This document shows, piece after piece, positions 53,018-54,991 of a stretch of 64,000 nt of DNA. Numbering within the stretch: the stretch's first letter is position 1; every line of letters starts with the position of its first letter. The notes below the pieces were generated by a model. The model saw only the letters and a list, made by a program, of their open reading frames with translations. It did not search any database and had not been told where the DNA came from. The stretch spans positions 609 through 64,608 of the forward strand of contig JAGRAE010000001.1 in NCBI GenBank assembly GCA_020435005.1, in the 5' to 3' direction. The position numbers and the translations under genes were made by a program. The DNA is from Bdellovibrionales bacterium (lineage in GTDB: Bacteria > Bdellovibrionota > Bdellovibrionia > Bdellovibrionales > UBA1609).

Positions 53018-54991
53018 TTAATATATATCGTTCGTTGTATTATAAACATTAAATTTTCCTGTTGGCGTTATTAATCTATCATCTTTTATTACCTTTTTCA
53101 GTGCCCGAGTCTTATCATCTAGAATTACAATTGCTGATTTTTGATTTTTACCATTCCATACAGAAAACCAAACCTCATCGCCTTTTTCATTATATTCAGG
53201 TTGAACAACTCGTTTCGGACCATCACCAAGATCTGCCATTTCAGCTATAGGAATTACAGTAAATCCCTTTTCTAATTTCTTAATATCCCAAACTGCAACC
53301 GATTGACTTATTTTTATGTCTGGATTTAAGGGAGTATCTACCCAAAGATTTCTAGATTTCGGATGCGTCTTCAAAAATAGTGAACCACCACCCTGTCCTT
53401 TTAATGTGCGAACTACAGTCCATGCCTTTCTTCCCTGTGTCGAAATCAATGAAATTGTATTGTCGCCTAAATGACCTGTGGCCCACACATGCCCATGGTC
53501 AGGGTCTTTAAAATTGGCACCTCTTCCTGGGTGTGGAATGGCTCCAACATCAACTAACTTAATTAATTCTCCCTTTTTAGAGTCTATCACTGCAATTTTA
53601 TTTGACTTATTTGCAGCAGATAAAAAATATCGGTGTGTTCTGTCCCAACCACCATCGTGCAAAAATTGTGCTGTTTCAATTTCTGTGGTCTTTAAATTTT
53701 GAATGTCACTGTAATCAACCATCAAAACTTTACCAGTCTCCTTCACATTTATAATAAATTCTGGTTTTTCGTGAGAAGCAACTATAGCAGCAACACGAGG
53801 CTCAGGATGATATTCTTGAGTCCCTACAGTCATCCCTCGGGTGGACACAACTTTTAGAGGTTCAAGTGTATCACCATTCATTATTACAAATTGAGGTGGC
53901 CAATATGACCCAGCAATGGCATACCTATCTTCATAACCTTTATATTTTGAAGTCTCAACTGATCTTGCTTCAAGACCTACTTTAATCTCAGCGACGGTAG
54001 AAGGAGTATCCATCCATAGATCTATTAAATTTATTTTAGCATCTCGACCAATAACAAAAAGATAACGTCCGGAATTAGAAAGCCGAGAAATATGTACTGC
54101 GTAGCCAGTTTTAAGGATCTTAACTATTTTCTTACTGTCTCCGTCAATCAGTGCAATCTCACCTGAGTCACGAAGTGTGACTGAAAATAAATTGTTTAAA
54201 TTAAGCTTATTCTCTTGTTTTTTAGGACGCTTTTCAACAGGCACAAACACTTTCCACGATCCTGTCAACTCTTTCATTCCCCACTCCGGGGGAGTTGGTG
54301 GTTCGTTTTGAATATATCGAGCCATAATATTGATTTCTGACTTAGATAACTCTCCAGAGGTCCCCCAGTTTGGCATTCCCCCAGGAGAGCCAAAATTAAT
54401 AAAATTGGCAAGATAATCTGTACCTAATTTACGAGTTATATCCGGTGTTAAAGGTTTACCTGTTGCCCCTTTACGAAGCACACCATGACAGCCGGCACAT
54501 CGTTGAAAATATATATTCTTAGCTTTGTTAAATTCTGCACTTGTTAATCGAAGCCCCTTTGGCAATTGATTGTCTATAATGTCTCCTGCCATCACCGCTG
54601 AAGGGGCCCCTTCATATTTTGATGTTGGATTCTTCATCGAAGGTTTATCTTTTGGCTTAATTTTAGCTTTCTGACTAGAAAAATATGCTGCTAAATCTAG
54701 CATGTCTTGCTCACTAAGTGTGGCTGCATTCGGCTTCATTAAAGCCGCATTAGGAGTATTACGTGTTCCATCTTTAAATGCTTTTAGTTGTTTATACAAA
54801 AAAGTTGCACCTTTACCCGCAATAGAAGGGAACATTTTTTCATTTAAACTGTTTCCTCCCTCTCCATGACAAGCAAAGCACGTTGCTGCTTTTGCCCGTC
54901 CGGCCTTAGCATCGCCAGCAGCAAATGTATTTAAGGCCACCCCACTAAGAAGCAAGAAAAGACTGATCTTTGCTATTTTTTCTAAACTCAT
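53018..54991 (-). CDS. nirS: Cytochrome cd1 nitrite reductase NirS with an additional N-terminal c-type cytochrome domain
   Basis: From [20 protein letters not shown] onward it is near-colinear with Pseudomonas NirS as I recall it: [56 protein letters not shown]. An extra haem motif CFACH occurs at residues 38-42. Confidence 0.95.

Follow-up and report, generated by a model that had tools for sequence, protein, structure and literature searches.

A c4-type cytochrome domain at the N-terminus of a Bdellovibrionales cd1 nitrite reductase, a candidate built-in electron donor

Cytochrome cd1 nitrite reductase (NirS) is ordinarily fed by a separate soluble electron carrier, either NirM (cytochrome c551), NirC or a cupredoxin. 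The electron supply of NirS differs between organisms, and its donors have usually been found one species at a time. In the Pseudomonas aeruginosa enzyme, the N-terminal arm crosses to the partner subunit. Cytochromes that are tethered to the enzyme itself have been well studied on the Cu nitrite reductases (PMC7201279, PMC6038957). For NirS, full-text literature searches yielded a single description of an extra cytochrome, in the Chloroflexi protein with the domain order C1-C2-NirS, where a NirM-like role was proposed and the arrangement was stated to be 'unique to Chloroflexi' (Schwartz et al. 2022, PMC8756737). The Chloroflexi C1 bears the CDD label c551/552 and is related to free cytochromes of Nitrospirae and Nitrospinae (PMC8756737), and it is just this case that Pold et al. 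2024 mention (PMC10999283). The concept of a cytochrome-NirS fusion thus has a published precedent and is expected by specialists. The gene considered here is a nirS in DNA of a Bdellovibrionales bacterium (assembly GCA_020435005.1, contig JAGRAE010000001.1, positions 609 to 64,608), a stretch of 64,000 nucleotides that is called the window below. Its product carries an additional c-type cytochrome domain, also termed C1, ahead of a complete NirS.

The core of this protein is that of a Pseudomonas-type cd1 nitrite reductase (EC 1.7.2.1) as judged by its predicted haem c domain, d1 propeller and catalytic residues. In a search of the Protein Data Bank (PDB), the 568-residue P. aeruginosa NirS chain 5guw_M is matched from its residue 29 to its end at 568 by residues 119-657 of the protein (E 1.4e-253); the Paracoccus cd1 enzyme likewise aligns with the core. 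The haem c ligands His51 and Met88 of P. aeruginosa correspond to H169 and M206, the d1 ligand His182 to H300, and the catalytic pair His327 and His369 to H445 and H487. All five residues are invariant in 70 fused homologues, which are 65-82% identical to the window protein overall; Y126, the counterpart of arm Tyr10, is conserved in at least 90% of them. The window protein therefore shares the haem c ligands, d1 ligand, catalytic His pair and arm Tyr of the P. aeruginosa structures (1nir, 1bl9, 5guw), from which it differs in having about 90 additional N-terminal residues that form a second c-type cytochrome domain. Pfam divides the protein into Cytochrom_C (33-106, E 2.2e-13), Cytochrome_CBB3 (154-227, E 6.3e-20) and Cytochrom_D1 (264-652, E 1.5e-146), the last spanning the full PF02239 profile, and these predicted domains are matched far above chance level. 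An AlphaFold2 (AF2) monomer model built from the 70 homologues gave the core repeated strands and a strand-rich propeller with high values of the predicted local distance difference test (pLDDT). The three-domain architecture and all cofactor ligands are conserved in the window protein. No solved structure has three domains of this kind, as every NirS match in the PDB begins at query residue 119 or later.

The original prediction, made from the window sequence alone, had pointed to two CxxCH motifs (CFACH at residues 38-42 and CAGCH at 165-169) in a protein of 657 residues, whose N-terminus was estimated to extend some 90-95 residues beyond that of the Pseudomonas enzyme. Both motifs are where it placed them when checked by hand against the DNA, and the protein is indeed encoded by a single open reading frame (ORF), uninterrupted in the ORF listing of the window by any in-frame stop across 657 residues. 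The estimated extension agrees with the roughly 90 residues given by the PDB alignment, and the alignment with characterised NirS that it had recommended puts the start of the core at residue 119. The region it singled out, 54617-54991, is NirS residues 1-125. The deposited protein MCB0389679.1, which is 100% identical, has the NCBI name 'MAG: c-type cytochrome [Bdellovibrionales bacterium]'.

C1 belongs to the c4/c552 family of cytochromes. Residues 25-115 match cytochrome c4 with E 1.5e-26 when the full protein is used as PDB query and 7.6e-30 when C1 is used alone. The matches of C1 include cytochromes c4 (6q2u, 7.6e-30; 1etp, 3.6e-25) and the 87-residue monohaem c552 of entry 1cno (3.5e-17), as well as c-552 and c554. 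The protein in 1cno is the c552 of Pseudomonas nautica (= M. hydrocarbonoclasticus), and C1 aligns end to end both with it and with the N-domains of free c4. The predicted mature end of NirS (AGDAKAG) aligns with residue 1 of mature c4 (AGDAAAGQAKAAVCGACHG; 6q2u, 1etp) and of c552 (AGDIEAGKAKAAVCAACHG; 1cno), so that C1 is a c4-type module in its full extent, and the cleavage site predicted for signal peptidase is credible. Like c4 and c552, it has CxxCH at mature positions 14-18, a Met as likely sixth ligand, and the block PxLAGQ...Y...QL..F. In the alignment, the candidate ligand Met85 falls on the methionine within 'apvmqg' of c552, presumably the haem ligand of that protein. Both 1cno and the N-module of c4 (6q2u, 1etp) have the same CxxCH position and Met ligand region as C1, yet they are free soluble proteins, c4 with two modules, whereas C1 is one module covalently joined to an enzyme. 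The tandem modules of dihaem c4 are absent here; a single module precedes the NirS c domain, as in monohaem c552.

Among 1.84 billion representative proteins, C1 shares as much as about 52% identity with single modules in dihaem c4-like proteins of roughly 190-290 residues. When C1 alone was searched against 50%-identity representatives, the ranking was dominated by multi-repeat c4-like proteins with 4-10 modules, whose summed scores hide single-module proteins, so the search points to membership of the c4 repeat family and to nothing narrower. The c4/c55x-like character that had been predicted for the domain thus holds for c4/c552. An orthologue of NirM (c551) or NirC was also considered and rejected, as the NCBIfam c551 and c550 models match only the NirS c domain (151-228) and miss C1; c551 structures are absent from its PDB matches at E <= 1e-8. 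In the AF2 model C1 is folded, with five helices and pLDDT 72-93, while pLDDT falls below 50 for residues 113-137, i.e., the linker and the start of the NirS arm. The linker is flexible, roughly 12-25 residues long, and varies freely in length and sequence among homologues (alignment columns about 125-150).

The fusion is widespread. The original prediction had suggested surveying NirS homologues for it, and both CxxCH motifs lie behind a signal peptide in 117 of the 120 best database clusters, an architecture much commoner than had been implied. Of the remaining three, P0107 is a genuine two-domain NirS, and P0097 and P0100 are truncated gene calls that start inside C1. Truncated calls of this kind begin, for example, MAAGLSDTDIENLAAHFSS..., and because they exist, counts of architectures in databases underestimate the fusion. 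In a scan of GTDB species genomes, an in-frame upstream CxxCH was present in 21 of the best 80 nirS loci from at least 600 stretches, which is not an unbiased frequency. Named sources of the c4-type fusion (type A below) are Bdellovibrionales, Pseudobdellovibrionaceae, Gammaproteobacteria, Pseudomonadales and Ca. Schekmanbacteria. In a neighbour-joining tree of the NirS core, midpoint-rooted and without support values, the window protein falls in a large, almost entirely fused clade. Six residues of C1 (C38, C41, H42, G43, P55 and M85) are invariant in the 70 fused homologues, so haem binding by C1 is under purifying selection. One sub-clade (P0046, P0050, P0054, P0055, P0059, P0064, P0066, P0086) has lipoprotein-like signal peptides (...LLFSGC, ...LALSGC) followed by a spacer rich in Ser, Thr, Ala, Gly and Pro, which suggests a membrane-anchored three-domain NirS; the window protein differs in having an ordinary Sec signal peptide.

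A second fused NirS, type B, is found in Lysobacterales and Steroidobacteraceae. It too has an extra N-terminal cytochrome c followed by a full NirS, and its genes likewise lack adjacent small cytochrome genes or nirF/nirN. Cultured carriers are Arenimonas malthae, A. metalli, A. fontis, Pseudoxanthomonas koreensis and Luteimonas sp. The type B protein is longer, about 700 residues in total, and its C1 is of a different family, with the motif CxxCHQ...GAFPPL and 28% identity to the window C1. The spacing between the CxxCH motifs is 152-157 residues in type B, compared with 116-125 at the type A loci L001 and L002 and 127 in the window protein. The tree places type B amid non-fused sequences. 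In the PDB, its C1 is best matched (6e-27) by the tethered cytochrome found in two Cu nitrite reductases, 3ziy (RpNiR) and 2zoo, so the same cytochrome family has become attached to both NirK and NirS. These three-domain Cu enzymes, from Ralstonia pickettii and Pseudoalteromonas, follow the same principle as the window protein, a donor cytochrome tethered to an NO-forming enzyme, but the enzyme (NirK) is unrelated, the tether is C-terminal and the cytochrome is of another family than the window C1. Since the C1 domains of types A and B belong to different families, the two fusions have independent origins. Capture of a cytochrome at the same end of NirS has occurred at least twice, and probably three times if Chloroflexi are counted.

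From these sequence comparisons, C1 is probably the built-in electron donor of a three-domain periplasmic cd1 nitrite reductase, tethered to an otherwise standard NirS. After removal of the signal peptide, the mature protein would open with C1, joined by the Lys/Pro-rich linker to the N-terminal arm. C1 would take electrons from a membrane donor, e.g., cytochrome bc1 or an equivalent, and swing on its tether to deliver them to the NirS haem c, within the molecule or across the dimer. The haem c would then reduce haem d1, where nitrite would be converted to nitric oxide (NO). C1 would thus stand in for the free periplasmic carrier (NirM, NirC, c552 or cupredoxin) that serves an ordinary NirS. 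As C1 is joined to the arm, which crosses between subunits in P. aeruginosa, each C1 may sit nearer the other monomer of the dimer, although this placement is speculation by analogy.

That the donor has been fused to the reductase, as the original prediction proposed, is the best-supported explanation of what the sequences present, namely a complete c4/c552 module, invariant ligands, a flexible linker, no adjacent small cytochrome gene and convergent fusions. The choice of cytochrome also fits, cytochrome c552 being the physiological partner of the Marinobacter cd1 nitrite reductase (PMC4474632). Among GTDB species loci with enough flanking DNA, a small CxxCH ORF (nirM/C/T/B-like) lies on the same strand within 2.5 kb downstream of 32 of 49 non-fused nirS genes and of one of 18 fused genes (Fisher p = 1.3e-5, kinship ignored). 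There is no free cytochrome c gene in the 64-kb window, where the only CxxCH ORFs are nirS and norC. Finally, NO-forming nitrite reductases have captured class I cytochromes more than once and independently, as would be predicted for a tethered donor.

Several observations weigh against a built-in donor in a working enzyme. The complementarity with small cytochrome genes is not phylogenetically independent, since the fused loci belong mostly to one or two clades. In the AF2 monomer model, C1 was not placed with confidence against the NirS c domain. In the Cu nitrite reductases, the effects of tethering are more complex than plain donation (PMC7201279). Neither nirM, nirC, nirF nor nirN, nor any paralogue of the d1 propeller, was found in the 64-kb window, so that this nirS, unlike that of P. 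aeruginosa, is not followed by nirM, nirC or d1 biosynthesis genes. More generally, a nirF/nirN-like paralogue lies within about 8 kb at none of 15 fused nirS loci and at 20 of 31 non-fused ones.

One other explanation is that C1 is a docking and wiring module, or a gating and regulatory one, that couples NirS to a partner complex, either NorC of the same locus or bc1. The complex regulatory effects in the Cu enzymes would suit such a role, as would the lipoprotein-type signal peptides of one sub-clade and the NirS-cNOR complex known structurally (5guw). In addition, the window NorC has an extra domain of its own. Its residues 1-135 cover P. aeruginosa NorC in full (3o0r_C, 3.7e-31). The protein has 240 residues as against the usual ~150, and its residues ~154-236 make up a further cytochrome c domain of c551/SoxX-like type, where a second CxxCH lies at 170. 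Fused NirS and extended NorC occur together on at least two contigs. Type A fused NirS is also present, however, at loci without nearby nor genes (L081, L082), and a wiring role overlaps with donation rather than excluding it. As the primary function of C1 it is rather unlikely.

Cleavage of the linker in the periplasm, by which a pro-protein would yield ordinary NirS and a free c552-like cytochrome in a 1:1 ratio, is very unlikely. Two points favour it: a linker rich in Lys and Pro for which disorder is predicted, and the exact correspondence of C1 to a free-standing c552. On the other hand, variable sequence and length leave the linker with no conserved cleavage motif, crystal structures of the PDB 3ziy family show the comparable cytochrome of Cu nitrite reductase still joined to its enzyme, and a fusion whose product is cleaved has no obvious gain over an operon. 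It is, if anything, slightly less probable still that the enzyme does not work as a dissimilatory nitrite reductase in this organism, being either a relic deprived of haem d1 or a catalyst of other chemistry (with O2, hydroxylamine or NO). The lack of nirF/nirN-like genes in the window and around fused nirS in general speaks for this, but those genes may lie elsewhere in the genome, and nirS sits with nnrS, a Crp/Fnr regulator and norCBQD. The invariant catalytic and ligand residues, together with 66-82% identity of the core across many lineages, imply strong purifying selection. An artefact in which a mis-called start, a frameshift or an assembly chimera joined a small cytochrome gene to nirS is effectively refuted, even though entries such as P0097 and P0100 do carry wrong starts, because the ORF is continuous behind a ribosome-binding site, the same in-frame layout recurs in the 117 independent clusters and 21 GTDB species genomes, the full fused ORF with its upstream CxxCH that underlies P0097 is present in the DNA of L001 (7886-9875), and the sole signal peptide is at the extreme N-terminus, there being no internal start with a signal peptide (as originally noted), so that the NirS part could not be exported separately.

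The coordinates of nirS, its domains and its neighbours are collected in Table 1. The same-strand order in the window is nnrS, nirS, the Crp/Fnr regulator, the alginate-export-family porin and, further on, norC-norB-norQ-norD. Solitary nirS genes are also found at the type A loci L081 and L082; fused nirS genes behave as independent units that are not tied to the classical nir operon. The extended form of NorC (224-253 residues) is present in at least 120 clusters, mainly from Bdellovibrionales, Oligoflexia and Pseudobdellovibrio. Extended NorC and fused NirS also co-occur, by indirect match, on a 1,342,771-bp JGI contig (P0008/P0387).

Table 1. Positions of the fused nirS, its parts and neighbouring genes in the window, and of type B loci elsewhere.
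Feature	Position	Strand	Remarks
nirS ORF	53018..54991	-	657 aa, ATG start; signal peptide, C1, linker, haem c domain, haem d1 beta-propeller
Ribosome-binding site AGGAG	54998..55002	-	6 nt upstream of nirS ATG; read from sequence
Sec signal peptide, residues 1-24	54920..54991	-	predicted cleavage before AGDAKAG
C1, extra c4-type class I cytochrome c domain, residues 25-110	54662..54919	-	Pfam PF00034, PDB matches, AF2
CFACH haem-attachment motif, residues 38-42	54866..54880	-	hand-checked against DNA
Met85, predicted sixth ligand of C1 haem	54737..54739	-	invariant in 70 homologues; aligns with c552 'apvmqg' Met
Lys/Pro-rich linker, residues 111-122	54626..54661	-	variable in homologue alignment; low AF2 pLDDT
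NirS N-terminal arm, residues 123-150, including Tyr126	54542..54625	-	PDB alignment; Tyr126 = P. aeruginosa Tyr10
Canonical NirS haem c domain (C2), residues 151-235, with Met206	54287..54541	-	Pfam and PDB alignment
CAGCH haem-attachment motif of C2, residues 165-169	54485..54499	-	hand-checked against DNA
Haem d1 eight-bladed beta-propeller, residues 264-652, with H300, H445, H487	53036..54202	-	Pfam PF02239, E 1.5e-146
854-aa ORF	56654..59218	-	upstream of nnrS; ribonucleotide reductase-like by eye only
90-aa ORF ending CCGICGSNQ	56305..56577	-	between 854-aa ORF and nnrS; no Pfam/NCBIfam match
nnrS	55160..56275	-	upstream of nirS; Pfam PF05940
Crp/Fnr-family regulator	52218..52940	-	directly downstream of nirS
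Alginate-export-family porin	50952..52193	-	after Crp/Fnr regulator
158-aa ORF with signal peptide	50443..50919		between nirS and norC; no Pfam/NCBIfam match
461-aa ORF	49042..50427	+	between nirS and norC; no Pfam/NCBIfam match
norC, extra C-terminal cytochrome c domain	48160..48882	-	240 aa
norB	46829..48163	-	matches 3o0r_B, 9.6e-113
norQ	46042..46842	-	
norD	44210..46039	-	
Type B example	L035 7896-9998		Arenimonas malthae CC-JY-1
Other type B loci	L021, L036, L042-L047, L051, L053, L056-L062, L072, L078, L080		

The intergenic region upstream of nirS (54992-55159) contains no FNR/Dnr box of the form TTGAT-N4-ATCAA with at most one mismatch. The element TTGATttcaATATT, about 60 nt upstream of the ATG, was considered as such a box and rejected, having three mismatches to the consensus; it is also too close to TATAAT for a class II site, and no regulatory claim is made for it. 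Over the whole window there are 15 sites resembling TTGAT-N4-ATCAA with at most one mismatch, where 7.6 are expected and the maximum in 100 shuffles was 14. Three of these are inside the porin gene, at 51189, 51708 and 51840.

The 158-, 461- and 90-residue ORFs of the window have zero matches to the small ORFs beside fused nirS in L081 and L082. At L081 (12946-15626) an anaerobic ribonucleotide reductase (NRDD plus its radical-SAM activase) adjoins the fused nirS and, with the 854-residue ORF of the window, there may be a recurrent link of nirS with an oxygen-independent supply of deoxyribonucleoside triphosphates. At L082 (13109-18698), on a contig of gammaproteobacterial type, the neighbours are two genes for CCP_MauG dihaem peroxidases and an arsenite-oxidase-like pair (a Rieske_3/Molybdopterin large subunit and a Rieske small subunit), a setting that hints at arsenite oxidation coupled to nitrite reduction.

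A bolder possibility is that, in this Bdellovibrionota lineage, NirS (at its N-terminus) and NorC (at its C-terminus) have each captured a cytochrome of their own, giving a carrier-free, hard-wired module from nitrite to nitrous oxide (N2O). The tethered cytochromes would be fed directly by a membrane complex and might exchange electrons within a NirS-cNOR supercomplex. A fused nirS would then be self-sufficient, since no dedicated donor gene is needed, and could move between phyla independently of the nir operon. At present this extension is doubtful.

The closest described protein, the Chloroflexi C1-C2-NirS, shares with the window protein its domain order, the proposed donor role and a nirS outside the classical nir operon. 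It differs in that its C1 is of c551/552 type by the published description, while the window C1 is of c4 type and its host belongs to the Bdellovibrionales. Common descent of the two C1 domains is unlikely. The type A clade extends over Bdellovibrionota, Gammaproteobacteria and Ca. Schekmanbacteria, and 'unique to Chloroflexi' clearly does not hold for the cytochrome-NirS fusion. The clade is large and visible in databases but apparently undescribed in the literature. What gives the finding its value is the breadth of three-domain NirS, its convergent origin and the existence of cultured carriers for experiments.

Three-domain NirS is common: the c4 type and type B each account for more than 100 sequence clusters, and type B occurs in cultured Arenimonas, Pseudoxanthomonas and Luteimonas. 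The survey therefore corrects the published view of the fusion as rare and confined to Chloroflexi. It also bears on annotation, as fused proteins are often labelled merely "c-type cytochrome" or "cytochrome D1 domain-containing protein" and some of their starts are mis-called. Because fused nirS genes lie outside nir operons, they can be missed or misjudged when denitrifiers are sought by their operons. A NirS with a covalently attached donor would be a defined 1:1 system for the study of inter-haem electron transfer into cd1 enzymes, much as the tethered cytochrome has been for Cu nitrite reductase.

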